Below the pieces are notes generated by a model. That model did not search any database, was not told the origin of the DNA, and saw only the letters and a program-made list of their open reading frames with translations. Shown here piece by piece: positions 6,126 to 64,000 of a stretch of DNA of 64,000 nucleotides. A program made the translations under genes and the position numbers. Source of the DNA: Eledone cirrhosa (taxonomy: Eukaryota); the NCBI GenBank assembly GCA_964016885.1, contig OZ024749.1, forward strand, positions 5,022,001 to 5,086,000. Reading direction: 5' to 3'. The number at the start of each line of letters is the position of its first letter. Position 1 is the stretch's first letter.

Positions 6126-6128
<3 letters not shown>

Positions 6129-6335
6129 AAAATGTTCAAGACCCCGGCGGCAGAGCTCAAGGCGTTTCGACGGCTTTTTCTGTCAAGAAATATTTTAGTC
6201 CAGAAATAGCCGTCGAAACGGCTTGAGCTCTGCCGTCGGGGTCTTGAAAATATTCGTATTACCCACTCTACTACCCTAAGTATTGAGTACTCTGGTTCGT
6301 CATGGTCCATCTGGTTCCTTACCACAACTCATTCG

Positions 6336-6374
<39 letters not shown>

Positions 6375-6478
6375 TATATATATATAACGAAGGAACCAGA
6401 TGGCCTATAAAGCATATATTTTTGTCCAGAATTAGCCGTCGAAACGGCTTCAGCTCAGCCGGCGGGGTCCTACTTGTT

Positions 6479-6778: not shown

Positions 6779-6820
<42 letters not shown>

Positions 6821-6839
6821 CAAATAACGAAACGAAATT

Positions 6840-9800
6840 AAGCGTCAGTCATACAAAAGTGAGTTACAAACGAAGCGAAATTTAATTTCGTTTCGTTATT
6901 TGTTTTTATCGTCTCCGTTGAACCGGTACTTACTCACACTCTATGCAAATTAGTCTGCCCACTACTAATGTTCATAGAAAAAGCATATAACGATATGTGC
7001 TTTTACGATTCTCTAGAGAGGCCGGAAGATAGGTAAATATTGCTGATGAGTTGTAACAACAACGAAACTAGTTCAATATTCCTTGTCTGGCTTTCTGGAG
7101 AATAGAGGAAAGGTGTTTCCTCAAAAACCAGTATGACTCTAAAAACCGGTTTGTCTGTGTGTTTACATACAGAATAGCTGGCCACTCACAGTAAAGTGAC
7201 CAGTGAAAAAACTTTATAAAAAAAAAAAAACTTGGTACATCTACATATGTATACGTGTGTGTATTCATATACATACTAGTATTTCAGTATACATATATGG
7301 ATGTACATCTTTAACTTAATTGTTTAAGCGTCAGTCATACAAAAGTGAGTTACAAACGAAGCGAAATTTAATTTCGTTTCGTTATTTGTTTTTATCGTCT
7401 CCGTTGAACCGGTACTTACTCACACTCTATGCAAATTAGTCTGCCCACTACTAATGTTCATAGAAAAAGCATATAACGATATGTGCTTTTACGATTCTCT
7501 AGAGAGGCCGGAAGATAGGTAAATATTGCTGATGAGTTGTAACAACAACGAAACTAGTTCAATATTCCTTGTCTGGCTTTCTGGAGAATAGAGGAAAGGT
7601 GTTTCCTCAAAAACCAGTATGACTCTAAAAACCGGTTTGTCTGTGTGTTTACATACAGAATAGCTGGCCACTCACAGTAAAGTGACCAGTGAAAAAACTT
7701 TATAAAAAAAAAAAAAACTTGGTACATCTACATATGTATACGTGTGTGTATTCATATACATACTAGTATTTCAGTATACATATATGGATGTACATCTTTA
7801 ACTTAATTGTTTAAGCGTCAGTCATACAAAAGTGAGTTACAAACGAAGCGAAATTTAATTTCGTTTCGTTATTTGTTTTTATCGTCTCCGTTGAACCGGT
7901 ACTTACTCACACTCTATGCAAATTAGTCTGCCCACTACTAATGTTCATAGAAAAAGCATATAACGATATGTGCTTTTACGATTCTCTAGAGAGGCCGGAA
8001 GATAGGTAAATATTGCTGATGAGTTGTAACAACAACGAAACTAGTTCAATATTCCTTGTCTGGCTTTCTGGAGAATAGAGGAAAGGTGTTTCCTCAAAAA
8101 CCAGTATGACTCTAAAAACCGGTTTGTCTGTGTGTTTACATACAGAATAGCTGGCCACTCACAGTAAAGTGACCAGTGAAAAAACTTTATAAAAAAAAAA
8201 AAACTTGGTACATCTACATATGTATACGTGTGTGTATTCATATACATACTAGTATTTCAGTATACATATATGGATGTACATCTTTAACTTAATTGTTTAA
8301 GCGTCAGTCATACAAAAGTGAGTTACAAACGAAGCGAAATTTAATTTCGTTTCGTTATTTGTTTTTATCGTCTCCGTTGAACCGGTACTTACTCACACTC
8401 TATGCAAATTAGTCTGCCCACTACTAATGTTCATAGAAAAAGCATATAACGATATGTGCTTTTACGATTCTCTAGAGAGGCCGGAAGATAGGTAAATATT
8501 GCTGATGAGTTGTAACAACAACGAAACTAGTTCAATATTCCTTGTCTGGCTTTCTGGAGAATAGAGGAAAGGTGTTTCCTCAAAAACCAGTATGACTCTA
8601 AAAACCGGTTTGTCTGTGTGTTTACATACAGAATAGCTGGCCACTCACAGTAAAGTGACCAGTGAAAAAACTTTATAAAAAAAAAAAAACTTGGTACATC
8701 TACATATGTATACGTGTGTGTATTCATATACATACTAGTATTTCAGTATACATATATGGATGTACATCTTTAACTTAATTGTTTAAGCGTCAGTCATACA
8801 AAAGTGAGTTACAAACGAAGCGAAATTTAATTTCGTTTCGTTATTTGTTTTTATCGTCTCCGTTGAACCGGTACTTACTCACACTCTATGCAAATTAGTC
8901 TGCCCACTACTAATGTTCATAGAAAAAGCATATAATGATATGTGCTTTTACGATTCTCTAGAGAGGCCGGAAGATAGGTAAATATTGCTGATGAGTTGTA
9001 ACAACAACGAAACTAGTTCAATATTCCTTGTCTGGCTTTCTGGAGAATAGAGGAAAGGTGTTTCCTCAAAAACCAGTATGACTCTAAAAACCGGTTTGTC
9101 TGTGTGTTTACATACAGAATAGCTGGCCACTCACAGTAAAGTGACCAGTGAAAAAACTTTATAAAAAAAAAAAAACTTGGTACATCTACATATGTATACG
9201 TGTGTGTATTCATATACATACTAGTATTTCAGTATACATATATGGATGTACATCTTTAACTTAATTGTTTAAGCGTCAGTCATACAAAAGTGAGTTACAA
9301 ACGAAGCGAAATTTAATTTCGTTTCGTTATTTGTTTTTATCGTCTCCGTTGAACCGGTACTTACTCACACTCTATGCAAATTAGTCTGCCCACTACTAAT
9401 GTTCATAGAAAAAGCATATAACGATATGTGCTTTTACGATTCTCTAGAGAGGCCGGAAGATAGGTAAATATTGCTGATGAGTTGTAACAACAACGAAACT
9501 AGTTCAATATTCCTTGTCTGGCTTTCTGGAGAATAGAGGAAAGGTGTTTCCTCAAAAACCAGTATGACTCTAAAAACCGGTTTGTCTGTGTGTTTACATA
9601 CAGAATAGCTGGCCACTCACAGTAAAGTGACCAGTGAAAAAACTTTATAAAAAAAAAAAAACTTGGTACATCTACATATGTATACGTGTGTGTATTCATA
9701 TACATACTAGTATTTCAGTATACATATATGGATGTACATCTTTAACTTAATTGTTTAAGCGTCAGTCATACAAAAGTGAGTTACAAACGAAGCGAAATTT

Positions 9801-12800
9801 AATTTCGTTTCGTTATTTGTTTTTATCGTCTCCGTTGAACCGGTACTTACTCACACTCTATGCAAATTAGTCTGCCCACTACTAATGTTCATAGAAAAAG
9901 CATATAACGATATGTGCTTTTACGATTCTCTAGAGAGGCCGGAAGATAGGTAAATATTGCTGATGAGTTGTAACAACAACGAAACTAGTTCAATATTCCT
10001 TGTCTGGCTTTCTGGAGAATAGAGGAAAGGTGTTTCCTCAAAAACCAGTATGACTCTAAAAACCGGTTTGTCTGTGTGTTTACATACAGAATAGCTGGCC
10101 ACTCACAGTAAAGTGACCAGTGAAAAAACTTTATAAAAAAAAAAAAACTTGGTACATCTACATATGTATACGTGTGTGTATTCATATACATACTAGTATT
10201 TCAGTATACATATATGGATGTACATCTTTAACTTAATTGTTTAAGCGTCAGTCATACAAAAGTGAGTTACAAACGAAGCGAAATTTAATTTCGTTTCGTT
10301 ATTTGTTTTTATCGTCTCCGTTGAACCGGTACTTACTCACACTCTATGCAAATTAGTCTGCCCACTACTAATGTTCATAGAAAAAGCATATAACGATATG
10401 TGCTTTTACGATTCTCTAGAGAGGCCGGAAGATAGGTAAATATTGCTGATGAGTTGTAACAACAACGAAACTAGTTCAATATTCCTTGTCTGGCTTTCTG
10501 GAGAATAGAGGAAAGGTGTTTCCTCAAAAACCAGTATGACTCTAAAAACCGGTTTGTCTGTGTGTTTACATACAGAATAGCTGGCCACTCACAGTAAAGT
10601 GACCAGTGAAAAAACTTTATAAAAAAAAAAAAACTTGGTACATCTACATATGTATACGTGTGTGTATTCATATACATACTAGTATTTCAGTATACATATA
10701 TGGATGTACATCTTTAACTTAATTGTTTAAGCGTCAGTCATACAAAAGTGAGTTACAAACGAAGCGAAATTTAATTTCGTTTCGTTATTTGTTTTTATCG
10801 TCTCCGTTGAACCGGTACTTACTCACACTCTATGCAAATTAGTCTGCCCACTACTAATGTTCATAGAAAAAGCATATAACGATATGTGCTTTTACGATTC
10901 TCTAGAGAGGCCGGAAGATAGGTAAATATTGCTGATGAGTTGTAACAACAACGAAACTAGTTCAATATTCCTTGTCTGGCTTTCTGGAGAATAGAGGAAA
11001 GGTGTTTCCTCAAAAACCAGTATGACTCTAAAAACCGGTTTGTCTGTGTGTTTACATACAGAATAGCTGGCCACTCACAGTAAAGTGACCAGTGAAAAAA
11101 CTTTATAAAAAAAAAAAAACTTGGTACATCTACATATGTATACGTGTGTGTATTCATATACATACTAGTATTTCAGTATACATATATGGATGTACATCTT
11201 TAACTTAATTGTTTAAGCGTCAGTCATACAAAAGTGAGTTACAAACGAAGCGAAATTTAATTTCGTTTCGTTATTTGTTTTTATCGTCTCCGTTGAACCG
11301 GTACTTACTCACACTCTATGCAAATTAGTCTGCCCACTACTAATGTTCATAGAAAAAGCATATAACGATATGTGCTTTTACGATTCTCTAGAGAGGCCGG
11401 AAGATAGGTAAATATTGCTGATGAGTTGTAACAACAACGAAACTAGTTCAATATTCCTTGTCTGGCTTTCTGGAGAATAGAGGAAAGGTGTTTCCTCAAA
11501 AACCAGTATGACTCTAAAAACCGGTTTGTCTGTGTGTTTACATACAGAATAGCTGGCCACTCACAGTAAAGTGACCAGTGAAAAAACTTTATAAAAAAAA
11601 AAAAAACTTGGTACATCTACATATGTATACGTGTGTGTATTCATATACATACTAGTATTTCAGTATACATATATGGATGTACATCTTTAACTTAATTGTT
11701 TAAGCGTCAGTCATACAAAAGTGAGTTACAAACGAAGCGAAATTTAATTTCGTTTCGTTATTTGTTTTTATCGTCTCCGTTGAACCGGTACTTACTCACA
11801 CTCTATGCAAATTAGTCTGCCCACTACTAATGTTCATAGAAAAAGCATATAACGATATGTGCTTTTACGATTCTCTAGAGAGGCCGGAAGATAGGTAAAT
11901 ATTGCTGATGAGTTGTAACAACAACGAAACTAGTTCAATATTCCTTGTCTGGCTTTCTGGAGAATAGAGGAAAGGTGTTTCCTCAAAAACCAGTATGACT
12001 CTAAAAACCGGTTTGTCTGTGTGTTTACATACAGAATAGCTGGCCACTCACAGTAAAGTGACCAGTGAAAAAACTTTATAAAAAAAAAAAAACTTGGTAC
12101 ATCTACATATGTATACGTGTGTGTATTCATATACATACTAGTATTTCAGTATACATATATGGATGTACATCTTTAACTTAATTGTTTAAGCGTCAGTCAT
12201 ACAAAAGTGAGTTACAAACGAAGCGAAATTTAATTTCGTTTCGTTATTTGTTTTTATCGTCTCCGTTGAACCGGTACTTACTCACACTCTATGCAAATTA
12301 GTCTGCCCACTACTAATGTTCATAGAAAAAGCATATAACGATATGTGCTTTTACGATTCTCTAGAGAGGCCGGAAGATAGGTAAATATTGCTGATGAGTT
12401 GTAACAACAACGAAACTAGTTCAATATTCCTTGTCTGGCTTTCTGGAGAATAGAGGAAAGGTGTTTCCTCAAAAACCAGTATGACTCTAAAAACCGGTTT
12501 GTCTGTGTGTTTACATACAGAATAGCTGGCCACTCACAGTAAAGTGACCAGTGAAAAAACTTTATAAAAAAAAAAAAACTTGGTACATCTACATATGTAT
12601 ACGTGTGTGTATTCATATACATACTAGTATTTCAGTATACATATATGGATGTACATCTTTAACTTAATTGTTTAAGCGTCAGTCATACAAAAGTGAGTTA
12701 CAAACGAAGCGAAATTTAATTTCGTTTCGTTATTTGTTTTTATCGTCTCCGTTGAACCGGTACTTACTCACACTCTATGCAAATTAGTCTGCCCACTACT

Positions 12801-15800
12801 AATGTTCATAGAAAAAGCATATAACGATATGTGCTTTTACGATTCTCTAGAGAGGCCGGAAGATAGGTAAATATTGCTGATGAGTTGTAACAACAACGAA
12901 ACTAGTTCAATATTCCTTGTCTGGCTTTCTGGAGAATAGAGGAAAGGTGTTTCCTCAAAAACCAGTATGACTCTAAAAACCGGTTTGTCTGTGTGTTTAC
13001 ATACAGAATAGCTGGCCACTCACAGTAAAGTGACCAGTGAAAAAACTTTATAAAAAAAAAAAAACTTGGTACATCTACATATGTATACGTGTGTGTATTC
13101 ATATACATACTAGTATTTCAGTATACATATATGGATGTACATCTTTAACTTAATTGTTTAAGCGTCAGTCATACAAAAGTGAGTTACAAACGAAGCGAAA
13201 TTTAATTTCGTTTCGTTATTTGTTTTTATCGTCTCCGTTGAACCGGTACTTACTCACACTCTATGCAAATTAGTCTGCCCACTACTAATGTTCATAGAAA
13301 AAGCATATAACGATATGTGCTTTTACGATTCTCTAGAGAGGCCGGAAGATAGGTAAATATTGCTGATGAGTTGTAACAACAACGAAACTAGTTCAATATT
13401 CCTTGTCTGGCTTTCTGGAGAATAGAGGAAAGGTGTTTCCTCAAAAACCAGTATGACTCTAAAAACCGGTTTGTCTGTGTGTTTACATACAGAATAGCTG
13501 GCCACTCACAGTAAAGTGACCAGTGAAAAAACTTTATAAAAAAAAAAAAACTTGGTACATCTACATATGTATACGTGTGTGTATTCATATACATACTAGT
13601 ATTTCAGTATACATATATGGATGTACATCTTTAACTTAATTGTTTAAGCGTCAGTCATACAAAAGTGAGTTACAAACGAAGCGAAATTTAATTTCGTTTC
13701 GTTATTTGTTTTTATCGTCTCCGTTGAACCGGTACTTACTCACACTCTATGCAAATTAGTCTGCCCACTACTAATGTTCATAGAAAAAGCATATAACGAT
13801 ATGTGCTTTTACGATTCTCTAGAGAGGCCGGAAGATAGGTAAATATTGCTGATGAGTTGTAACAACAACGAAACTAGTTCAATATTCCTTGTCTGGCTTT
13901 CTGGAGAATAGAGGAAAGGTGTTTCCTCAAAAACCAGTATGACTCTAAAAACCGGTTTGTCTGTGTGTTTACATACAGAATAGCTGGCCACTCACAGTAA
14001 AGTGACCAGTGAAAAAACTTTATAAAAAAAAAAAAACTTGGTACATCTACATATGTATACGTGTGTGTATTCATATACATACTAGTATTTCAGTATACAT
14101 ATATGGATGTACATCTTTAACTTAATTGTTTAAGCGTCAGTCATACAAAAGTGAGTTACAAACGAAGCGAAATTTAATTTCGTTTCGTTATTTGTTTTTA
14201 TCGTCTCCGTTGAACCGGTACTTACTCACACTCTATGCAAATTAGTCTGCCCACTACTAATGTTCATAGAAAAAGCATATAACGATATGTGCTTTTACGA
14301 TTCTCTAGAGAGGCCGGAAGATAGGTAAATATTGCTGATGAGTTGTAACAACAACGAAACTAGTTCAATATTCCTTGTCTGGCTTTCTGGAGAATAGAGG
14401 AAAGGTGTTTCCTCAAAAACCAGTATGACTCTAAAAACCGGTTTGTCTGTGTGTTTACATACAGAATAGCTGGCCACTCACAGTAAAGTGACCAGTGAAA
14501 AAACTTTATAAAAAAAAAAAAACTTGGTACATCTACATATGTATACGTGTGTGTATTCATATACATACTAGTATTTCAGTATACATATATGGATGTACAT
14601 CTTTAACTTAATTGTTTAAGCGTCAGTCATACAAAAGTGAGTTACAAACGAAGCGAAATTTAATTTCGTTTCGTTATTTGTTTTTATCGTCTCCGTTGAA
14701 CCGGTACTTACTCACACTCTATGCAAATTAGTCTGCCCACTACTAATGTTCATAGAAAAAGCATATAACGATATGTGCTTTTACGATTCTCTAGAGAGGC
14801 CGGAAGATAGGTAAATATTGCTGATGAGTTGTAACAACAACGAAACTAGTTCAATATTCCTTGTCTGGCTTTCTGGAGAATAGAGGAAAGGTGTTTCCTC
14901 AAAAACCAGTATGACTCTAAAAACCGGTTTGTCTGTGTGTTTACATACAGAATAGCTGGCCACTCACAGTAAAGTGACCAGTGAAAAAACTTTATAAAAA
15001 AAAAAAAACTTGGTACATCTACATATGTATACGTGTGTGTATTCATATACATACTAGTATTTCAGTATACATATATGGATGTACATCTTTAACTTAATTG
15101 TTTAAGCGTCAGTCATACAAAAGTGAGTTACAAACGAAGCGAAATTTAATTTCGTTTCGTTATTTGTTTTTATCGTCTCCGTTGAACCGGTACTTACTCA
15201 CACTCTATGCAAATTAGTCTGCCCACTACTAATGTTCATAGAAAAAGCATATAACGATATGTGCTTTTACGATTCTCTAGAGAGGCCGGAAGATAGGTAA
15301 ATATTGCTGATGAGTTGTAACAACAACGAAACTAGTTCAATATTCCTTGTCTGGCTTTCTGGAGAATAGAGGAAAGGTGTTTCCTCAAAAACCAGTATGA
15401 CTCTAAAAACCGGTTTGTCTGTGTGTTTACATACAGAATAGCTGGCCACTCACAGTAAAGTGACCAGTGAAAAAACTTTATAAAAAAAAAAAAACTTGGT
15501 ACATCTACATATGTATACGTGTGTGTATTCATATACATACTAGTATTTCAGTATACATATATGGATGTACATCTTTAACTTAATTGTTTAAGCGTCAGTC
15601 ATACAAAAGTGAGTTACAAACGAAGCGAAATTTAATTTCGTTTCGTTATTTGTTTTTATCGTCTCCGTTGAACCGGTACTTACTCACACTCTATGCAAAT
15701 TAGTCTGCCCACTACTAATGTTCATAGAAAAAGCATATAACGATATGTGCTTTTACGATTCTCTAGAGAGGCCGGAAGATAGGTAAATATTGCTGATGAG

Positions 15801-18800
15801 TTGTAACAACAACGAAACTAGTTCAATATTCCTTGTCTGGCTTTCTGGAGAATAGAGGAAAGGTGTTTCCTCAAAAACCAGTATGACTCTAAAAACCGGT
15901 TTGTCTGTGTGTTTACATACAGAATAGCTGGCCACTCACAGTAAAGTGACCAGTGAAAAAACTTTATAAAAAAAAAAAAACTTGGTACATCTACATATGT
16001 ATACGTGTGTGTATTCATATACATACTAGTATTTCAGTATACATATATGGATGTACATCTTTAACTTAATTGTTTAAGCGTCAGTCATACAAAAGTGAGT
16101 TACAAACGAAGCGAAATTTAATTTCGTTTCGTTATTTGTTTTTATCGTCTCCGTTGAACCGGTACTTACTCACACTCTATGCAAATTAGTCTGCCCACTA
16201 CTAATGTTCATAGAAAAAGCATATAACGATATGTGCTTTTACGATTCTCTAGAGAGGCCGGAAGATAGGTAAATATTGCTGATGAGTTGTAACAACAACG
16301 AAACTAGTTCAATATTCCTTGTCTGGCTTTCTGGTGAATAGAGGAAAGGTGTTTCCTCAAAAACCAGTATGACTCTAAAAACCGGTTTGTCTGTGTGTTT
16401 ACATACAGAATAGCTGGCCACTCACAGTAAAGTGACCAGTGAAAAAACTTTATAAAAAAAAAAAAACTTGGTACATCTACATATGTATACGTGTGTGTAT
16501 TCATATACATACTAGTATTTCAGTATACATATATGGATGTACATCTTTAACTTAATTGTTTAAGCGTCAGTCATACAAAAGTGAGTTACAAACGAAGCGA
16601 AATTTAATTTCGTTTCGTTATTTGTTTTTATCGTCTCCGTTGAACCGGTACTTACTCACACTCTATGCAAATTAGTCTGCCCACTACTAATGTTCATAGA
16701 AAAAGCATATAACGATATGTGCTTTTACGATTCTCTAGAGAGGCCGGAAGATAGGTAAATATTGCTGATGAGTTGTAACAACAACGAAACTAGTTCAATA
16801 TTCCTTGTCTGGCTTTCTGGAGAATAGAGGAAAGGTGTTTCCTCAAAAACCAGTATGACTCTAAAAACCGGTTTGTCTGTGTGTTTACATACAGAATAGC
16901 TGGCCACTCACAGTAAAGTGACCAGTGAAAAAACTTTATAAAAAAAAAAAAAACTTGGTACATCTACATATGTATACGTGTGTGTATTCATATACATACT
17001 AGTATTTCAGTATACATATATGGATGTACATCTTTAACTTAATTGTTTAAGCGTCAGTCATACAAAAGTGAGTTACAAACGAAGCGAAATTTAATTTCGT
17101 TTCGTTATTTGTTTTTATCGTCTCCGTTGAACCGGTACTTACTCACACTCTATGCAAATTAGTCTGCCCACTACTAATGTTCATAGAAAAAGCATATAAC
17201 GATATGTGCTTTTACGATTCTCTAGAGAGGCCGGAAGATAGGTAAATATTGCTGATGAGTTGTAACAACAACGAAACTAGTTCAATATTCCTTGTCTGGC
17301 TTTCTGGAGAATAGAGGAAAGGTGTTTCCTCAAAAACCAGTATGACTCTAAAAACCGGTTTGTCTGTGTGTTTACATACAGAATAGCTGGCCACTCACAG
17401 TAAAGTGACCAGTGAAAAAACTTTATAAAAAAAAAAAAACTTGGTACATCTACATATGTATACGTGTGTGTATTCATATACATACTAGTATTTCAGTATA
17501 CATATATGGATGTACATCTTTAACTTAATTGTTTAAGCGTCAGTCATACAAAAGTGAGTTACAAACGAAGCGAAATTTAATTTCGTTTCGTTATTTGTTT
17601 TTATCGTCTCCGTTGAACCGGTACTTACTCACACTCTATGCAAATTAGTCTGCCCACTACTAATGTTCATAGAAAAAGCATATAACGATATGTGCTTTTA
17701 CGATTCTCTAGAGAGGCCGGAAGATAGGTAAATATTGCTGATGAGTTGTAACAACAACGAAACTAGTTCAATATTCCTTGTCTGGCTTTCTGGAGAATAG
17801 AGGAAAGGTGTTTCCTCAAAAACCAGTATGACTCTAAAAACCGGTTTGTCTGTGTGTTTACATACAGAATAGCTGGCCACTCACAGTAAAGTGACCAGTG
17901 AAAAAACTTTATAAAAAAAAAAAAACTTGGTACATCTACATATGTATACGTGTGTGTATTCATATACATACTAGTATTTCAGTATACATATATGGATGTA
18001 CATCTTTAACTTAATTGTTTAAGCGTCAGTCATACAAAAGTGAGTTACAAACGAAGCGAAATTTAATTTCGTTTCGTTATTTGTTTTTATCGTCTCCGTT
18101 GAACCGGTACTTACTCACACTCTATGCAAATTAGTCTGCCCACTACTAATGTTCATAGAAAAAGCATATAACGATATGTGCTTTTACGATTCTCTAGAGA
18201 GGCCGGAAGATAGGTAAATATTGCTGATGAGTTGTAACAACAACGAAACTAGTTCAATATTCCTTGTCTGGCTTTCTGGAGAATAGAGGAAAGGTGTTTC
18301 CTCAAAAACCAGTATGACTCTAAAAACCGGTTTGTCTGTGTGTTTACATACAGAATAGCTGGCCACTCACAGTAAAGTGACCAGTGAAAAAACTTTATAA
18401 AAAAAAAAAAACTTGGTACATCTACATATGTATACGTGTGTGTATTCATATACATACTAGTATTTCAGTATACATATATGGATGTACATCTTTAACTTAA
18501 TTGTTTAAGCGTCAGTCATACAAAAGTGAGTTACAAACGAAGCGAAATTTAATTTCGTTTCGTTATTTGTTTTTATCGTCTCCGTTGAACCGGTACTTAC
18601 TCACACTCTATGCAAATTAGTCTGCCCACTACTAATGTTCATAGAAAAAGCATATAACGATATGTGCTTTTACGATTCTCTAGAGAGGCCGGAAGATAGG
18701 TAAATATTGCTGATGAGTTGTAACAACAACGAAACTAGTTCAATATTCCTTGTCTGGCTTTCTGGAGAATAGAGGAAAGGTGTTTCCTCAAAAACCAGTA

Positions 18801-21422
18801 TGACTCTAAAAACCGGTTTGTCTGTGTGTTTACATACAGAATAGCTGGCCACTCACAGTAAAGTGACCAGTGAAAAAACTTTATAAAAAAAAAAAAACTT
18901 GGTACATCTACATATGGATACGTGTGTGTATTCATATACATACTAGTATTTCAGTATACATATATGGATGTACATCTTTAACTTAATTGTTTAAGCGTCA
19001 GTCATACAAAAGTGAGTTACAAACGAAGCGAAATTTAATTTCGTTTCGTTATTTGTTTTTATCGTCTCCGTTGAACCGGTACTTACTCACACTCTATGCA
19101 AATTAGTCTGCCCACTACTAATGTTCATAGAAAAAGCATATAACGATATGTGCTTTTACGATTCTCTAGAGAGGCCGGAAGATAGGTAAATATTGCTGAT
19201 GAGTTGTAACAACAACGAAACTAGTTCAATATTCCTTGTCTGGCTTTCTGGAGAATAGAGGAAAGGTGTTTCCTCAAAAACCAGTATGACTCTAAAAACC
19301 GGTTTGTCTGTGTGTTTACATACAGAATAGCTGGCCACTCACAGTAAAGTGACCAGTGAAAAAACTTTATAAAAAAAAAAAAACTTGGTACATCTACATA
19401 TGTATACGTGTGTGTATTCATATACATACTAGTATTTCAGTATACATATATGGATGTACATCTTTAACTTAATTGTTTAAGCGTCAGTCATACAAAAGTG
19501 AGTTACAAACGAAGCGAAATTTAATTTCGTTTCGTTATTTGTTTTTATCGTCTCCGTTGAACCGGTACTTACTCACACTCTATGCAAATTAGTCTGCCCA
19601 CTACTAATGTTCATAGAAAAAGCATATAACGATATGTGCTTTTACGATTCTCTAGAGAGGCCGGAAGATAGGTAAATATTGCTGATGAGTTGTAACAACA
19701 ACGAAACTAGTTCAATATTCCTTGTCTGGCTTTCTGGAGAATAGAGGAAAGGTGTTTCCTCAAAAACCAGTATGACTCTAAAAACCGGTTTGTCTGTGTG
19801 TTTACATACAGAATAGCTGGCCACTCACAGTAAAGTGACCAGTGAAAAAACTTTATAAAAAAAAAAAAACTTGGTACATCTACATATGTATACGTGTGTG
19901 TATTCATATACATACTAGTATTTCAGTATACATATATGGATGTACATCTTTAACTTAATTGTTTAAGCGTCAGTCATACAAAAGTGAGTTACAAACGAAG
20001 CGAAATTTAATTTCGTTTCGTTATTTGTTTTTATCGTCTCCGTTGAACCGGTACTTACTCACACTCTATGCAAATTAGTCTGCCCACTACTAATGTTCAT
20101 AGAAAAAGCATATAACGATATGTGCTTTTACGATTCTCTAGAGAGGCCGGAAGATAGGTAAATATTGCTGATGAGTTGTAACAACAACGAAACTAGTTCA
20201 ATATTCCTTGTCTGGCTTTCTGGAGAATAGAGGAAAGGTGTTTCCTCAAAAACCAGTATGACTCTAAAAACCGGTTTGTCTGTGTGTTTACATACAGAAT
20301 AGCTGGCCACTCACAGTAAAGTGACCAGTGAAAAAACTTTATAAAAAAAAAAAAACTTGGTACATCTACATATGTATACGTGTGTGTATTCATATACATA
20401 CTAGTATTTCAGTATACATATATGGATGTACATCTTTAACTTAATTGTTTAAGCGTCAGTCATACAAAAGTGAGTTACAAACGAAGCGAAATTTAATTTC
20501 GTTTCGTTATTTGTTTTTATCGTCTCCGTTGAACCGGTACTTACTCACACTCTATGCAAATTAGTCTGCCCACTACTAATGTTCATAGAAAAAGCATATA
20601 ACGATATGTGCTTTTACGATTCTCTAGAGAGGCCGGAAGATAGGTAAATATTGCTGATGAGTTGTAACAACAACGAAACTAGTTCAATATTCCTTGTCTG
20701 GCTTTCTGGAGAATAGAGGAAAGGTGTTTCCTCAAAAACCAGTATGACTCTAAAAACCGGTTTGTCTGTGTGTTTACATACAGAATAGCTGGCCACTCAC
20801 AGTAAAGTGACCAGTGAAAAAACTTTATAAAAAAAAAAAAACTTGGTACATCTACATATGTATACGTGTGTGTATTCATATACATACTAGTATTTCAGTA
20901 TACATATATGGATGTACATCTTTAACTTAATTGTTTAAGCGTCAGTCATACAAAAGTGAGTTACAAACGAAGCGAAATTTAATTTCGTTTCGTTATTTGT
21001 TTTTATCGTCTCCGTTGAACCGGTACTTACTCACACTCTATGCAAATTAGTCTGCCCACTACTAATGTTCATAGAAAAAGCATATAACGATATGTGCTTT
21101 TACGATTCTCTAGAGAGGCCGGAAGATAGGTAAATATTGCTGATGAGTTGTAACAACAACGAAACTAGTTCAATATTCCTTGTCTGGCTTTCTGGAGAAT
21201 AGAGGAAAGGTGTTTCCTCAAAAACCAGTATGACTCTAAAAACCGGTTTGTCTGTGTGTTTACATACAGAATAGCTGGCCACTCACAGTAAAGTGACCAG
21301 TGAAAAAACTTTATAAAAAAAAAAAAACTTGGTACATCTACATATGTATACGTGTGTGTATTCATATACATACTAGTATTTCAGTATACATATATGGATG
21401 TACATCTTTAACTTAATTGTTT
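6840..21422 (+). repeat. Tandem array of 30 x 486-bp hammerhead-containing units (retrozyme-like satellite)
   Basis: Period 486 (aagcgtcag at 6840, 7326, ...). 14583 bp = 30x486 + 3 extra A's (units 2, 10, 21). Only three substitutions noticed (8936, 16335, 18917). Flanked by (TA)n on both sides. Confidence 0.97.
7036..7080 (+). ncRNA. Type I hammerhead ribozyme of the array unit (first of 30; last at 21133-21177)
   Basis: Helix I aatattg/caatatt (7 bp), CTGATGA 7043-7049, helix II gttg-taacaa-caac, GAAA 7064-7067, palindromic CTAG, GUU cleavage triplet 7071-7073. Confidence 0.9.
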
Positions 21423-21443
21423 ATATATATATATATATACACA

Positions 21444-21603
<160 letters not shown>

Positions 21604-23294: not shown

Positions 23295-24509
<1,215 letters not shown>

Positions 24510-25130: not shown

Positions 25131-27821
25131 AGTTGCATTTATCTTGCTTTATGTTCATACGAGTTATCACCAAGTCATAACCAGTGACCTCAAGAGACAA
25201 CAAGGTCCGCTATGTTCAAGAAAGAACATACATATTCACACATGCATCTTTAGTGTTTAGACTTGTGATGTACTTATATTGACAGAATCTTCCTTAGTAT
25301 ATGGGCAGTTCCCATTAGTACTATCTTTTGTATTTCTCCTATACGCGGGTTTCCTGGGATTTGCGATAAGTAGTCATTAGACCCCTTAGGTATCATTCCC
25401 AGAGCGCCTACAACCACTGGTATTGTTTTAGTTCTCAATTTCCACATTTTTCCAATTTCTATCTCCAGGTCCTTATAGTTGCTCAATTTTTCAAATGTTT
25501 TTATAGATACATTCTTGTCTATTGGAACAGACATATCAATTAGCAGGCATACCCTCTTTTTAAAGTCCTTCAATATTATATCAGGTCTATTTGCATCTAT
25601 TTTTCGGTCTGTTTGGATGCTAAAGTTCCACTAGATTGAGATGTGATCTTTTTCAAGTATGGGAGGTGGTTGATGCTCCCACCAATTCTTTTGATGGGGC
25701 AGGTCAAAATGCTTACACATTATCCAATGTATGTATTGTGCAGCTCTGTCATGCCTGTTTAGGTATTCGGTTCGAGCTATAGGACTGCACATTGAAATTA
25801 TATGGTCAATGGTCTCTGGTTGTTTTTTTCATACACGGCATAATGGGCTGCACCCATTTTTTATTATGTTGGCTTGGTAATTTTTTGTTGGCAGACACTG
25901 ATCTTGTGCCGATATAATCAGTCCTTCAGTCTCCGATTTCAGTCCAGAGGATACCAACCACTGAGGGGTTAAAGTTTTGTCAACATCAGGATTGTTAGCT
26001 CGCTCTGGGTATTTTCCATACAGAGGCTTTTCTTGCCATTTCTTAGTCAGTTTCTGTAGCAGTTCTTTCTTTGCAGTTACTTTTACCTGCTTTGCTTTTC
26101 CTGTGTTTTCCATTTCAGCAGTAAATGGGACTTCTGAAATGTGTAGTCCATTACTGTATCTTTGTGCATCTTTTGTAATGGAATATGATCTTTTGATGCT
26201 TTCGTGTTTCAAAACGAGTTTGATCATCCAATCATGTGATTCCCTTAGATATGTAGATAATCCAATTGTTGCAGTTTTCAACGCAATGTCTAACTGGATT
26301 AACCCACGTCCTCCTTCTTTCCTAGGGAGATATATTATATCTATATCTGCCTTAGGGTGATGCATTCTGTGCATGGTTAAGAATTTTCGAATTTTTGTAT
26401 CGAGCCTACGGATCTCTGTGCTTGACCAGTTGATGACATTGTAACTGTAGGTTACTACTGGTATGGCAAGCGTGTTTATGGCATCGATCCTATTCCTTGC
26501 ATTCAATTCCGTTCTTAAGATTGCTCTTACTCTGCGGTAACATTCCTTCCTTATCCTTTCCTTCATTGTCGAGTGCTTGATTCCGTCTCCTTCACAAACA
26601 CCTAGATATTTGTAAGTTTTTTCTTGATCAAGTTCTCTTATCACGTTCCCCCGATCAAGATTAATGTCTGAACTCTTCAGCAGCTTTCCTCTGGTGAACG
26701 TTGCTTTGGCGCATTTATCTAGTCCAAACTCCATTTTAATGTCATCACTGAACTGATTCATCATTTTTTGCAAATAATTTCAGGTCATCCATGTAGAACA
26801 GGTGATTAATGGTTTTGTCATAGACTTTATATCCATGTTTTGTTTCATTGAGCATTTTACTTAATGGTATAAGTGCGATGCAGAATAAAAGCGGTGATAA
26901 AGAGTCATCCTGAAAAATTCCACAATTAATATTAACTTCTCCAGCTTCCAGTGATTTTGTTTCACTATTCAAAAGGAGTGTCGTTTTCCATGTCTTCATA
27001 CTGAATGACAAAAACCTCCTGACAACGGGGGATATTTTGAAAATCTCTAAACATTTTTCAATCCAACTGTGTGGCAAACTATCGAATGCTTTTTTATAAT
27101 CTATCCAAGCAATCGATAGATTTTTGTGTCTATTATGACAATCTTCCAGTATCATTTTGTTAACCAGAAGCTGATCCTTACAGCCATATGAGCCTCGTTT
27201 ACACCCTTTCTGCTCAATGGGAAATAGATCATTTGTTATCAGGTGGTCATATGTGTATTCAGTTAGGACTGATGTTAAAATTTTATACATTGTGGTCAAG
27301 CAAGTTATCGGTCTGTAATTTTTGGGATTGTTTGTCTCATCATTCTTCGGAAGCAGGAATGTAATGCCGTTAACTAGCCATGATGGTATCTTTTCTGGCT
27401 CCTTAATTTTTTCATTGTAAAGTTGGGCTAACAGCTCATGAGACTCTGTGAAGCCATTTATCCAAAAGTTTTGTATTTTGTCTTTTCCTGGGGATTTCCA
27501 TTTGCTGGTTTTTCTTAGAGCCAAGCGCAACTGTTCAACTGTTATATTTTCCCATGTTTGTTCCTCAAGGTGAGCTGTATCTTTCATTTGTCTGTCTATC
27601 CATGGGGCATGTATGTTATGAACTTTTTCTTCGGCCCAGATCTTTTCCCAGAATTCTTGCACTTCCTCCTTGGGTGGTATTGATTTAGCAGTTATTTTTG
27701 ACTTACCAATTTTTCTGTAGAAGTTTCTTTGGTTGTTTTTGAACATATTATTGTCCTTATAGAATCTAGATCGTTTTTCAAAGCGCCTTATACGAGCAGC
27801 TTTGGCCGACACTTTTTGCTG
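25129..27821 (-). mobile_element. 5'-truncated Dong/R4-clade LINE (RT + CCHC + RLE endonuclease) inserted in (TAA)n
   Basis: RT motifs NYRPITCL, WIDYKKAFDS, GIFQDDSLSPLLF, HLFYMDDLKL, YKYLG. Zinc knuckle starts at CRV. RLE region IDMSVP..EKLSNY..PVVVGALG. (AAT)n tail at ~25096-25128 and (ATT)n upstream. Confidence 0.93.
25274..27812 (-). pseudogene. Frameshifted RT-RLE polyprotein (ORF pieces 26745-27812, 25829-26773, 25274-25573)
   Basis: Consecutive ORF-track fragments give RT, thumb and RLE domains, with frameshift/stop lesions. Confidence 0.9.
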
Positions 27822-28469
27822 GATTATTATTATTATTATTATTATTATAATAATGATAATAATTATTATTATTAGTAGTAGTATTTTTATTTCCCAACTA
27901 GCGGACCATTGAGAGTGAGTTAAACAGTTTTTTCACTTTTTTATTGTGTTTTTGTTTTGATATGCGCTCTATTTTCCTGCTATTAATTTTGTTTCTCACT
28001 CTTTTAAGTTGTGAAATAGACTGGTTCTCTACGCACGCGGCTGACACATTCCAGCTCGCTACTATATTGCTCGATAATGGGTAATCGCATCTAAAGTACG
28101 TTATAGGTTCTTGGAACTACCATTGTTACCATCGCTTTCCTCTAGCCACGGGGCTTGGAGGCATAAGCCGAATGCTACCATTCTATTATACATCGATGTG
28201 CGACTGCTATTTCTAATAGCCATCTTTTCACCTCTTATTAATTTGTGTGTGAGAGACGTTGGCTGAGAGCTTTTGACGGGTACGAAAGGATTAGTTTTCT
28301 CGTCTCGCGCCACCACGTAAAATGTGTAAATCGGTGGCTAGTCGAGAGATAGAGTCGTATTGGATGCCAGTTGCTTATCACTTTACCGCGTCAGTCGTCA
28401 TAAACAGTCATGACCGACATGGGCTGGTGTTTGGATTCTGTCGAGCGATTGGTTATTGATTAAGCCGTA

Positions 28470-33997: not shown

Positions 33998-34037
33998 CCG
34001 AGAACAAGTGTTTCACCTTAGCGGATCCTCAGCTCGG
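33998..34037 (-). ncRNA. Minimal type I hammerhead (GUU site)
   Basis: Minus strand: ccgag-CTGAGGA-tccgctaaggt-GAAAC-actt-GTT-ctcgg, with a perfect 5-bp helix I. Confidence 0.75.
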
Positions 34038-37469: not shown

Positions 37470-37674
37470 GCAGTTGAGTAAAAAGTCCAATGTTTAAAAT
37501 TAGCTTCGTTTATTACTGCTATATATATTTCAGTGACAGCCATCTTTGGCTGTGACCTCTTCAGGCAGTCCCAATTAGTGTGGTATAGACAAGTACATAT
37601 GTTGTTGACGTGTATAATTTTGTCAATACTCTGATATGTCCAGATTCTGGTTGGGTTGTTATTATATATTATAT

Positions 37675-42225: not shown

Positions 42226-42545
42226 CGTATGGGCTTACCGAATATTTATTATAATGTTCGGTTTGTTTCTAAACAAACAGCCCGAGTTAAGCCGTACAGT
42301 ATTTAGCAACCATCGTTGCCCTTTTGTTCAACACTGACACAGGAACGATGTACTAGTTTCAAGCTTATTAGCTATCGTCAGCATCGTATACCTTTCTGTC
42401 AGATGATTGAACGTGTGAAAGTATATACTTTCCTTATGCTGTTTGTTTACAAACAAACCGAACATTATAATAAATGTTCGGTAAACCCATACGTACATAT
42501 ATACATACTACTGTACGTCTTTACACATATATGTATGTACGTATA
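42131..42545. repeat. Inverted repeat pair (~110-150-bp arms)
   Basis: ttaccgaatatttattataatgttcggtttgtttctaaacaaacagc vs gctgtttgtttacaaacaaaccgaacattataataaatgttcggtaa. Confidence 0.85.
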
Positions 42546-52201: not shown

Positions 52202-52719
52202 AAAGTTAAATAAAAGTCAAATGATTAAAATTTAGCTTCATTTATTACTGCTATATATATTTCAGTGACAGCCATCTTTGGCTGTGACCTCTTCAGGCAG
52301 TTTGAATTAGTATGGTATAGACAAGTACATATGTTGTTTAGGTGTATAATATTGTCAATACTCTGATATGCCCAGTTCCCTGTTGGGTTGTTATTTCAAT
52401 GAGGAACTGGAGTCATATGACTTGAGTTCCTCATTGAAATAACAACCCAACAGGGAACTGGGCATATCAGAGTATTGACAATATTATACACCTAAACAAC
52501 ATATGTACTTGTCTATACCATACTAATTCAAACTGCCTGAAGAGGTCACAGCCAAAGATGGCTGTCACTGAAATAGCAGTAATAAACGAAGCTAAATTTT
52601 AATCATTTGACATTTATTTAACTTTATTTTACACGACTCCGGAGTAACCAAACCAAATTGCGCACTTTGTCGAGTGCTCCAGCCTGCATACTGAGGTGTT
52701 GGTATACAACCAACATAAA

Positions 52720-58170: not shown

Positions 58171-58742
58171 CAGCATCTTTGCTCTGTCGATATTCACGCC
58201 AACTGTCACCCTCCTCCGCTCATGCAGCTGCCGTCTGAACAACATTCTATGAGAGCCTGATCGCAGTTGCATTTACATCTCTTCGGAGAGACGCCTTCGC
58301 TTAGCCCTACTTACATCATTAGATAATCGACCAATGAAAGTTCTTTTCTTGGGGGGCATTGTTTTTAGAAAATTAACCAGGGAGAAAGATAAATAATGGA
58401 CAAATAAGGTTTAAGTAAGCAAATTTAAACACGGATATGAATTGTGAAAAAAATGTGATAAATCTATGGGGTCTGAGAAAGTGGGTATGTTTTGCAAGAT
58501 TTTGTGTACCAATCAAATTTCAGGTTTTAAGGTAGGGGAAACGCAGCGGACGGACTACCTGTCATAAAGGAAATTAAATAGTGTGGCTCCAGTGGTGGGT
58601 ATATAATGGGCATTATGTTTTTTCAGTTCGAACATAGCAATAAGTAAGTACTAACCATTGAAAGGATACAGGCAAAAATGGCCGAAAAATCACAGCATGA
58701 TAAACTGGAACCTTATGAACATAAACGCATTAACTAAACATC

Positions 58743-60945
58743 TCGCTGGCGGTTTCATCATGACAATGGACTCGGTGGTCAACTGGATTGGTTCCACCCG
58801 CGACACTAGTCGTCCTACATAGCCCCACAGGTCGGTAACGCCCGGGCAGTGTACAAATGCGTGCACGACGGTTTCCACGTTGCGCATACATCTTGGACAG
58901 ATCATTTTCGAAGCGTCTCTGCTCGGGCGCCCGTGTCTGTAGAGCTTGCCTCGAACTGGTAGAGCTCCTTGGTAGCACTGCCAGGCCAGGGACTTTTGGA
59001 AGTTGTCCATTGTTCCTGGGCGGAAGATCCTACCGAACAGACTGGCCAGTTCGTCCTCCTCTACGCCTAGAGTTTCTCCGAGCGCGTCGTCGCACTTGCT
59101 GCGGACCAACCTTCTATAGAAGGTCGAAGTGGAGTCTCCACTGATCGCCGGGTCCGTTTGCCAGAGGACTGTGAGCGCCTGACCACATTCGATGTGCCAG
59201 TCACCCATTTTCTTCGGTCTTTGCTTGACTCAGGCTGCAGCTCGGTCAGCGAGCCGAGTCGTGGGAAGGCTCGCCACACGAACGGGGGCACACACCGGTT
59301 GTCCGGTGAGGAATACGTGGAGGTGCCGCAGCCTGAGCGCGTGTTTGCGCATCGTCAGCCACAGCATCCCTAACCCTCTGTTTGAAGGGTGTTGGCAGCA
59401 GATGGATCTTCTCACCAAAGGATCCCGTTTCTTCAAAAGGAATTGAAAGAGCGCGCGCTCCATTTTGGTGAGCATTTTAGCTGGACAAAGCACAACAGTC
59501 AAGCGGTATTAGATGACGGACGCTATAAAAGTGTTCGCCACCTCCGGTCGACCTTTCAAGGATAGTTTGCACTCGGCCCACTGCTGGGTGAGCGCAAACA
59601 CCTTGGCCGTCAGCTCGTTGCAGTTCTTCTCCACCTGGAGGTCCGGACCAAACCAGACCCCGAGCAGCTTTACATGTCCTTCCGTCCAGCGTCCGAAGAC
59701 GCCATCGGAAGGCATCGGTTTGCCTCTCCACGTTCCGAGTTGCAAACCGACGGATTGGTCCCGGTTCAGCTTCGCTCCTGTGAAACTTTCGTATTCCTCC
59801 AGTAAGGTGCCGACATCCCCGATTTGTGAGGGGCTCGACACCATTACTGTCACGTCGTCGGCGCCGGCCGACGGCGCTTTTCGCTGTCCCGGTTCCAAAG
59901 GGAAGCCCTGCAATTGCTCCAACTTCCGCAGTAGTGGCTCGAGCGTCAGTACGTACAGAAGGGAGGAGAGAGGGCACCCTTGTCGGATGGATCGCGGGAT
60001 ATGGAACGGCTCCGAGAGGTAGCCGTTCATCTTGACCCTTGAGCAGATGATGTTGCTGTGCATTGCAGCAATCCAGCCCCTGAACACGGGTCCGAAGCCT
60101 ACCGCCTCGCGCACCGCATCCAGGTAACGATGGTCAACCCTATCGAAAGCTTTAGACTGATCCAAGTTGATCAGAGCCCCACCTAAACCGGGGTTACACC
60201 CTACCCTCACTATGATGTATCGCATGAGGTGGAGGTTATCGTGTATGGACCTAGTCGGGATTGCGCATGTCTGCGCTTCTCCCACCTGATTTTCGACGAC
60301 AAACACCAGCCTCTTTACCAACACCTTGGCCAAAATCTGTAACTCCTAGTTTAGCAGAGTTATGGGCCGGAAGTTGCCTATGTCATCCCCCTTATTCTCG
60401 TCCTTCCTGACTAACGTGTATACGCCCTTGGTCACAGAACTGGTAATTCTCCCATTCTGCTGCTGGCTGCTTCCATGAGACCGGAGAACAAGTCCGGCAT
60501 TGCTACGTAAAATTCGTAGGGCAGACCGTCGAGGTCTGGAGATTTGCGTTTGCCGCATTGGCTCAGCGCGTCCCCTATCTGATCGGCTGAAATCGGCCTT
60601 TGGCAGAACTTCGTCTCACCGTCCGACAGTCGCCGCACGCCGTCGAGGTATGGACCGAAACCCACAACCCCTCCCGGCGTGACGCCCTGACCGGACAGTT
60701 GAGCAAAGTGCCGCTGAAAGGCCGCGCACATCTGCTTCGGCTCACGTATTACGCGTCCGTCTTGGTCCTTCAAAAACCGAATCGTGGACTTGTTACCACT
60801 TTTCGCCTCCGTCACTCGGGCCCAGCTAACAGCTTTGTCTCCCTCGTTTCCCAGAGCACGTATCTTGCTCCTGACAACGCAGCCCCTTCGTGCTTTGTGT
60901 CGAAGAACTTTCCAAGGCCGTTCTTGTCGCTAACAAGCTGGTTAC
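58743..60945 (-). mobile_element. Tx1/L1-clade LINE ORF2 fragment (RT + zf-RVT), decayed and truncated at both ends
   Basis: SPDLDGLPYEFY, NFRPITLLN, LDQSKAFDRVDH, SIRQGCPLSSLLY, ADD, KLLGVWFG, GGLG-like RGLG, CPRC...ETVVHAFVHC. Confidence 0.92.
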
Positions 60946-62302: not shown

Positions 62303-62399
62303 TTGTTGTAGTTGTTGTTATTGACTGTTATTGTTGTTATTTCCTGTTATGTTGTTATTGTATGTTATGTTGTGGTTATGTTGTTGTTAGTTGTTGTAA

Positions 62400-64000
62400 G
62401 TTGTTATTGTCTGTTATGTTGTGGTTATTATGTTGTTAGTTGTTGTTAGTTGTTATTGTCTGTTATGTTGTGGTTATTATGTTGTTAGTTGTTGTTAGTT
62501 GTTATTGTCTGTTATGTTGTGGTTATTATGTTGTTAGTTGTTGTTAGTTGTTATTGTCTGTTATGTTGTGGTTATGTTGTTAGTTGTTGTTAGTTGTTAT
62601 TGTCTGTTATGTTGTGGTTATTATGTTGTTAGTTGTTGTTAGTTGTTATTGTCTGTTATGTTGTGGTTATTATGTTGTTAGTTGTTGTTAGTTGTTATTG
62701 TCTGTTATGTTGTGGTTATGTTGTTAGTTGTTGTTAGTTGTTATTGTCTGTTATGTTGTGGTTATGTTGTTAGTTGTTGTTAGTTGTTATTGTCTGTTAT
62801 GTTGTGGTTATTATGTTGTTAGTTGTTGTTAGTTGTTATTGTATGTTATGTTGTGGTTATTATGTTGTTAGTTGTTGTTAGTTGTTATTGTCTGTTATGT
62901 TGTGGTTATTATGTTGTTAGTTGTTGTTAGTTGTTATTGTCTGTTATGTTGTGGTTATTATGTTGTTAGTTGTTGTTAGTTGTTATTGTCTGTTATGTTG
63001 TGGTTATTATGTTGTTAGTTGTTGTTAGTTGTTATTGTCTGTTATGTTGTGGTTATTATGTTGTTAGTTGTTGTCAGTTGTTATTGTCTGTTATGTTGTG
63101 GTTATGTTGTTAGTTGTTGTTAGTTGTTATTGTCTGTTATGTTGTGGTTATTATGTTGTTAGTTGTTGTTAGTTGTTATTGTCTGTTATGTTGTGGTTAT
63201 TATGTTGTTAGTTGTTGTTAGTTGTTATTGTCTGTTATGTTGTGGTTATTATGTTGTTAGTTGTTGTTAGTTGTCATTGTCTGTTATGTTGTGGTTATTA
63301 TGTTGTTAGTTGTTGTTAGTTGTTATTGTCTGTTATGTTGTGGTTATTATGTTGTTAGTTGTTGTTAGTTGTTATTGGCTGTTATGTTGTGGTTATTATG
63401 TTGTTAGTTGTTGTTAGTTGTTATTGTCTGTTATGTTGTGGTTATTATGTTGTTAGTTGTTGTTAGTTGTTGTCTGTTATGTTGTGGTTATTATGTTGTT
63501 AGTTTTTGTTAGTTGTTATTGTCTGTTATGTTGTGGTTATTATGTTGTTAGTTGTTGTAAGTTGTTGTCTGTTAGGTTGTGGTTATTATGTTGTTGTTAG
63601 TTGTTGTTAGTTGTAAGTTGTTATTGTTTGTTATGTAGTGGTTATTATGTTGTTGTTAGTTGTTGTTAGTTGTATGTTATGTTGTGGTTATGCTGTTGTT
63701 AGTTTTAATGTCTGTTATGTTGTTATTATGTTGTTGTTAGCTGTTGTTAGTTGTTATTGTCTGTTATGTTGTGGTTGATGTTATGTTGTTAGTTGTTGTA
63801 AGTTATTGTGTTATGTTGTGGTTGATGTTATGTTGTTGTAAGTTGTTATTGTCTGTTATGTTGTGGTTGTTGTTAGTTGTTATTGTCTGTTATGTTGTGG
63901 TTATTGTTAGTTGTTATTGTCTGTTATGTTATGTTGTTGTTAGTTGTTATTGTCTGTTATGTCGTGGTTGTTGTTAGTTGTTATTGTCTGTTATGTTGTG
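62400..64000. repeat. 49-bp (46-bp variant) GT-rich minisatellite, degenerating rightwards
   Basis: Unit gtctgttatgttgtggttattatgttgttagttgttgttagttgttatt at 62409, 62458, ... Confidence 0.95.

Follow-up and report, generated by a model that had tools for sequence, protein, structure and literature searches.

A 14.6-kb tandem array in Eledone cirrhosa appears to be a young insertion of a retrozyme, a small non-coding repeat with a predicted self-cutting RNA motif, in which two arms are joined head to head. The array lies within a stretch of 64,000 nucleotides (the window; GCA_964016885.1, contig OZ024749.1, positions 5,022,001 to 5,086,000 of the forward strand), whose numbering is used below unless another contig is named. 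In our reading, to which we assign a probability of about two in three, a Penelope-like protein acting in trans made this insertion on one, probably circular, RNA. The parts of this reading differ in strength. That the insertion is of Penelope type is very probable, and we hold with good confidence that both target strands were primed on a single RNA. The fullest version, in which a dimer of the reverse transcriptase (RT) on one ribozyme RNA circle would have carried two-polymerase rolling-circle copying to about 30 laps, so that the array was born in one event and recorded the editing marks of a single molecule, is tentative and falls somewhat short of even odds.

The array consists of 30 units of 486-487 bp (period 486) at a guanine-cytosine (GC) content of 0.34, and it begins and ends in the same register. 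Among its units we find three single-unit substitutions and three units with A14 instead of A13; the last base matching the unit is 21423. The initial annotation had drawn attention to a 26-bp inverted piece of the unit at the left junction (6816-6841 versus 6882-6907) and to (TA)n at both array edges. Both observations stand, and the inverted match is exact over 28 bp: 6814-6841 is the reverse complement of 6882-6909 (blastn within the window, E=8e-9), with the two copies 40 nt apart. The bases TTAA at the head-to-head junction are readable as part of either arm and so form a 4-nt microhomology. A target-site duplication is unreadable inside (TA)n. The right flank is single-copy in the genome assembly searched (G000), the left flank is an old repeat, and no paralogous empty site was found in that assembly, where the left-flank repeat has no linked copy and the right flank is unique.

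Each unit carries one predicted type I hammerhead. The Rfam model RF02275 matches at full length on the + strand at 7025-7096 (37.7 bits, E=1.2e-7) with all core bases present; the isolated fold of this stretch is not significant against shuffles (z=-1.45). The repeat fits an animal retrozyme of the kind without long terminal repeats (non-LTR): the units are tandem and a few hundred bp long, GC is low, there is one type I hammerhead per unit, the family is dispersed and multi-copy, and we see no open reading frame (ORF), LTR, primer-binding site (PBS) or polypurine tract (PPT). Identity as a terminal-repeat retrotransposon in miniature (TRIM) or other LTR element was rejected by inspection, TG..CA ends, PBS and PPT all being absent. 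No ORF of at least 100 aa lies in the array, and the ORF with RT and GIY-YIG domains that marks an autonomous Penelope-like element is not found there. The unit differs from the 467-bp monomer at L001 only by a 19-nt A-rich insertion, which has 30 matches in G000, every one in this array. In every unit it reads as a short duplication with oligo(A) between, possibly the scar of RNA tailing and rejoining, and the near constancy of its A13 speaks against a new template jump in each unit. An apparent fixed 5' start at unit position 437 was rejected as an alignment break due to the same insertion. A self-overlapping contig of 497 nt in X4 is equally compatible with a circle and with a tandem.

Fixed ends, paired arms and a proposed mechanism

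Read on the hammerhead-sense strand, copies of the family vary at the 5' end but stop at one of two fixed points at the 3' end. End A falls at monomer position 66. End B lies 69-74 nt upstream of it, at 459-465 in the 467-nt monomer. In G000 we count 1,948 exact A ends that run into TATATA and 1,385 B ends that run into TA repeats; the reversed control pattern occurs in neither case (0 and 0). The 28-bp piece in the window is end A facing outward, and, given the abundance of A/TATATA against its empty control, the presence of this inverted piece is not chance. The right end of the array is B. Looked at from the repeat itself, the 22-mer at A has 9,862 exact copies, of which 7,421 run on into the next unit and 1,948 of the remaining 2,441 (80%) go directly into TATATA. 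The A/(TA)n junction is also present in independent contigs (X1, X5).

The initial annotation had named a preference for (TA)n and for inversion among other copies as a check. Both are there: at loci selected by homology and not by flank, 42 of 47 typed outer ends adjoin TA repeats, and the copies are mostly inverted. It had also taken the piece at the left junction for an inverted 5' segment of a Penelope insertion. The Penelope-like footprint survives in that description, but the piece is the fixed, tailed 3' end facing outward, and thus a second primed arm rather than an arbitrary 5' segment. Very short arms of either type also occur at L081-L083, L197, L204 and L215.

Some observations on the surroundings of family copies may be recorded here. 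In the left flanks of L050, L083 and L182 the retrozyme sits in (TA)n directly behind a coding Penelope-like family of the L161 type, at its 3' end, and insertions pile up in the same tracts. At L015, L032, L048 and L119 the same interrupted microsatellite motif appears by eye on both sides, as if one earlier tract had been split (uncounted). The family is present under 11 organism labels, from which we do not deduce spread between species: the raw reads of the X7 study contain 0 monomer reads, depths are low and carry-over is possible. RNA runs contain a fraction of 0.03 of the sequence words.

The two ends are strongly paired. From 100 A ends and 76 B ends listed in the first 144 Mb of contig C1 we took outward-facing pairs up to 25 kb apart, and these 39 pairs comprise 35 A/B, 3 B/B and 1 A/A, where independent choice would give 19.4 mixed pairs (p=1.5e-7). 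The sole A/A pair proved to be two separate insertions, and one A/B pair, 20.7 kb apart, proved to be two separate A/B insertions. We then parsed 84 head-to-head junctions (one duplicate locus dropped), 61 with both outer ends typed and 23 with an end atypical or out of view. Fully typed insertions are A/B in 59 of 61 cases and B/B in 2. Part of this sample is anchored: B/B cannot appear at loci anchored at A, and loci anchored at B were chosen from ends without a listed partner plus three B/B pairs.

Not only are the ends paired, but the arms themselves are alike. Across 68 insertions with at least 100 shared columns, the median difference is 0.5% between arms of the same insertion and 3.9% between different insertions, and in 38 of the 68 no other arm is as close as the partner. 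Variants that every copy in an insertion has and its 8 nearest neighbours lack (n=66) include, on the sense strand, 31 A>G and 10 T>C (p=0.0015); variants private to one copy (n=275) are symmetric, at 29 A>G versus 25 T>C. A-to-I (adenosine-to-inosine) editing is read as A>G. The bias on the sense strand supports an RNA intermediate. At L015, for example, six or more A>G changes lie close together in the tail, a haplotype with two occurrences in G000, one per arm. The cluster at L037 has three occurrences in G000, one in the B arm and the other two in consecutive units of the A arm. In both insertions the cluster is present in all copies of the stretch concerned. Such marks would be different nucleotides on a linear RNA and the same ones on a monomer circle. 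Both haplotypes could also have come from a donor that is lost or missing from the assembly, or from an RT that jumped back onto a single linear molecule. Separately, the array at L035 (G000:C1:131.44-131.45 Mb) contains a run of nine units that departs from the units after it at many columns, with A>G at several of these, which possibly reflects two templates in one locus.

In the mechanism that we propose, a Penelope-like protein with RT and GIY-YIG domains, acting in trans and probably as a dimer, would nick both strands of (TA)n. One DNA 3' end would prime complementary DNA (cDNA) at A and the other at B of the same RNA, and each cDNA would circle the RNA by strand displacement. The distance would vary, being 28 nt in one arm here and up to 30 laps in the other. 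The two cDNA 3' ends would then anneal at TTAA, with mutual fill-in to follow, and some of the 30 units would perhaps have been added later by local duplication. Microhomology at other junctions is consistent with such annealing. Among the 84 junctions, 72 were anchored; with 44 that have inserted bases or subfamily mismatches set aside, 28 clean junctions were left, and 16 of these share at least 2 nt, against 17.7% in simulation (p=3e-6).

The register of the array ends speaks less clearly. That both ends fall in the same register, with exactly 30 units between them, is true as first described, but it is weak evidence for how the array entered. B arms that stop within 13 nt of the B site number 7 of 69 versus 3.8 expected (p=0.09). 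Likewise, collision of an arm with the other start site leaves no excess of inner ends near A (5/145) and a weak one near B (18/145, post hoc), and a scan statistic over the 145 inner ends gives p=0.15.

Candidate proteins can be named. [quoted passage not shown] A first look at G000 yielded 10,596 GIY-YIG candidates, of which 150 were scored. Open frames of 938, 1,096 and 636 aa have an RT domain and a C-x4-C-x2-C linker, with a Pfam GIY-YIG match in two; PMC8557442 reports this linker motif for the clades Neptune and Nematis. One coding family with RT and GIY-YIG domains has tailed and tailless ends and lies head to head in (TA)n at L176. The sequence beside L006 holds no ORF of 120 aa, and no homology to a Penelope pseudo-LTR (pLTR) was found for the monomer.

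Laps at birth, local growth and other routes

As to how many of the 30 units were made at insertion, we regard it as about a coin-toss whether most of them were. The best-surviving alternative, plausible although a little below even odds, is that a short Penelope-type insertion of two or a few units, with ends as we describe them, was amplified locally and fast to 30 units by unequal exchange or slippage. Variants shared by blocks of units are found in 4 of 6 long sister arrays (C1:5.74, 14.04, 69.50 and 117.9 Mb) and mark growth in place; the array at 5.74 Mb is another 30-unit B arm, with 13 shared-variant columns. In the present array, by contrast, all 3 substitutions are private to single units, an argument with little power when there are three mutations, and the private insertion is present in both terminal units. 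Taken together, these two features indicate a single template for two units at the least and possibly for all 30. The array at C1:30.83 Mb favours many laps at birth: on either side of its inversion stand long identical arms, with 6 and 12 full units in opposite arms and zero variable columns. The initial annotation had the array entering by Penelope-type reverse transcription and not by slow satellite growth. The RNA intermediate, suggested by the A>G bias, and the exclusion of slow growth both remain, but the sister arrays show that fast block duplication must be reckoned with, and such duplication after insertion may be the source of some units.

A linear template would leave the double priming unchanged. 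It would be either a monomer cut by its hammerhead and copied with repeated template jumps, or an uncut multimeric donor transcript, and we consider it unlikely. Unprocessed RNA was the dominant substrate in vitro, as reported in the available text of PMC11167929, some arms alternate in a dimer-like manner, and inner ends are in slight excess at the predicted cut site (9/168; 11/145, p=0.06). A single pass over a cut linear monomer is nevertheless not the rule, because most arms cross that site (58/76 A and 57/69 B). The units show no junction scars there either. Jumps between independent RNAs would mix variants of a pool that is ~4% diverse, although jumps back onto the same molecule may have taken place. 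As for a multimeric donor, the assembly contains none for the 19-nt insertion or for either edited haplotype. An in-register test for a heterogeneous multimer template gave nearly equal counts (41 vs 42 and 29 vs 26) and speaks for neither side.

Still less likely is a route with a single priming event, in which the inverted arm would come from cDNA that folds back to prime itself or from an antisense template, and the second fixed end would be a site of endonuclease resolution. Fold-back has been proposed for rotifer Penelopes (PMC3846280, in the text available), a 40-nt loop is possible at the junction in the window, overlaps at internal hairpins are large, and containment of one arm in the other is possible in 45 of 61 insertions. 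In the other 16 of 61, however, neither arm contains the other, and in those the second arm is accordingly not a fold-back copy of the first cDNA. The sites flanking the tail are RT start sites in vitro (PMC11167929). In both arms, moreover, the A>G bias is on the hammerhead-sense strand. Helitron/DINE-like elements and satellites derived from miniature inverted-repeat transposable elements (MITEs) likewise have TA targets, subterminal hairpins and tandem arrays, and a near-perfect 14.6-kb array may be mis-sized by assembly; such a DNA-level element or an assembly artefact is nonetheless largely refuted and very improbable in view of the variable inner truncation, the two-arm geometry, the one hammerhead per unit, the strand-biased A>G changes, the differing flanks with a single-copy right side, and the A/(TA)n junction in the independent contigs X1 and X5.

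Several results weigh against a trans-mobilised retrozyme copied from one circular RNA. The hammerhead score of 37.7 bits lies below the Rfam gathering score of 52, and 8 of 9 retrozymes tested in the Xenopus preprint did not cleave (bioRxiv 10.64898/2026.07.22.740005). Sequence shared with the monomer is absent from the 50 GIY-YIG loci examined (30 at 1.5-kb flanks, 20 at ~9 kb), which gave only neighbouring independent insertions and weak 30-bp matches inside ORFs. The enrichment of inner ends at the predicted cut site, weak as it is (9/168, p=0.02, with the interval chosen post hoc), fits some cut linear templates, and the arm lengths at L015 and L037 leave fold-back possible, neither locus being among the 16 non-contained insertions. 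The microhomology count excludes 44 of 72 anchored junctions. Pairing has its exceptions in 2-3 B/B insertions and one true A/A (C1:363.1 Mb), and at several insertions only one arm is visible. To these must be added the block-shared variants of the long sister arrays discussed above.

Coordinates and neighbouring sequence

The features of the insertion are collected in Table 1.

Table 1. Features of the head-to-head insertion, in window positions.
Feature	Position	Strand	Remark
Left (TA)n target remnant (the (TA)n run itself, from 6782, reaches 6816)	6782..6815	.	
Short inverted arm, 28 bp, monomer positions 39-66; outer end is the fixed tailed 3' end A	6814..6841	-	Exact match; same end at 1,948 (TA)n junctions
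TTAA microhomology common to both arms, head-to-head junction	6838..6841	.	
Long arm: 30 head-to-tail 486-bp units, stopping at the fixed tailless 3' end B	6838..21423	+	
Predicted type I hammerhead motif, unit 1 (one per unit)	7025..7096	+	CUGAUGA core 7043, GAAAC 7064, predicted cut after 7074
19-nt A-rich insertion seen only in this array, in all 30 units including first and last	7206..7224	+	Placement ambiguous within the A run
'Tail' between ends B and A, shown at the unit 1/2 boundary; 13-bp hairpin inside	7327..7395	+	69 nt, or 74 nt if B is taken at its other position
Right (TA)n target remnant, interrupted here and there by CA	21422..21599	.	

Elsewhere in the window, a near-perfect inverted repeat with arms of ~55 bp lies at 6127-6253 and a related single copy at 6420-6472, each between (TA)n tracts; pieces of this short family also flank L017, L031, L049 and L093. 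A 49-bp T/G-rich tandem repeat (62332-63999) runs past the window end. Pieces of a mariner-type transposase and fragments of two reverse transcriptases of the long interspersed nuclear element (LINE) type lie at 23805-24509, 25829-27932 and 58690-60345, all on the - strand.

A regular expression found further hammerhead-like motifs at 34032(-), 37564(-), 37802(-), 42381(-), 46905(-), 52296(-) and 52537(+). Those at 37564 and 37802 fall within a 238-bp tandem duplication, those at 52296 and 52537 are head to head, and the match at 42381 resembles a sister retrozyme family of L034, L155 and L171. Distant sister hammerhead tandem families, ~70-77% alike in parts, lie beside the present family at L034:1-2400, L047:2660-3450 and L171:7980-9001, and at L034 two monomer types alternate with an 864-bp period.

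Comparison with known systems

In L1 twin priming, both target ends prime on one RNA and a head-to-head inversion joined by microhomology results. The insertions described here differ in that the second start is a fixed site rather than a place of chance annealing within the RNA, and in that the arms overlap, each being able to exceed one unit.

Retrozymes and the Penelope footprint are each already known. For animal non-LTR retrozymes, the copying of circular RNA into tandem cDNA is a proposed route in the available text of PMC7229834 and of bioRxiv 10.64898/2026.07.22.740005. As these papers describe them, such elements match the present family: they are non-coding tandems of few-hundred-bp units with one type I hammerhead each, low GC and up to tens of units per array, dispersed and co-occurring with Penelope-like elements. 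In the accessible parts of the retrozyme papers, however, mobilisation is deduced from co-occurrence and pLTR similarity and insertion ends are not given, whereas here the ends, an inverted second arm, a one-sided tail and editing-like marks are direct evidence from the genome. Our literature search, which left most subscription papers and older Penelope reviews outside its scope, returned no description of this footprint on a retrozyme, of A/B coupling or of editing marks across arms.

Neptune-type Penelope-like elements with an endonuclease (EN+) provide the nearest counterpart for the ends. In the text available (PMC8557442, PMC3846280) they have an inverted, 5'-truncated head-to-head copy, a tail at one end, a (TA)n target without visible duplication, a hammerhead and microhomology at the 5' junction. 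The present family differs from those accounts in having no ORF, in forming whole-unit tandems of up to 30 where theirs are partial, and in a tail of 69-74 nt against a published 30-40. Strict A/B pairing and a single-template origin of the arms, quantified here, go beyond what the same texts describe. Among non-autonomous elements, MRC1 and others of the Chlamys group likewise occur as multicopy head-to-tail insertions in microsatellites (PMC8557442); in the accessible part of that paper such elements generally have 3' sequence in common with an autonomous family, and canonical hammerheads are missing from most Chlamys elements. The origin of inverted arms and one-sided tails in Penelope-like elements is described there as open (PMC8557442). 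With some two thousand young insertions in one genome, the ends, their pairing and molecule-level A>G marks allow computational tests both of arm origin and of retrozyme mobilisation. For an in vitro assay the family also points to a small RNA, a target and candidate proteins, and it illustrates a route by which satellite arrays can begin as one retrotransposition event.

Such an assay has its model in the Poseidon PAc protein, which in the available text of PMC11167929 resembles the proposed enzyme in cutting and extending both strands, in its AT-rich target, in two starts flanking the tail and in a predicted dimer. The starts are there not linked within one insertion, the RNA is linear, and no difference between strands in the choice of start was found. 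Unlike those data, the pairing of A with B in the genome implies that the two starts are coupled.
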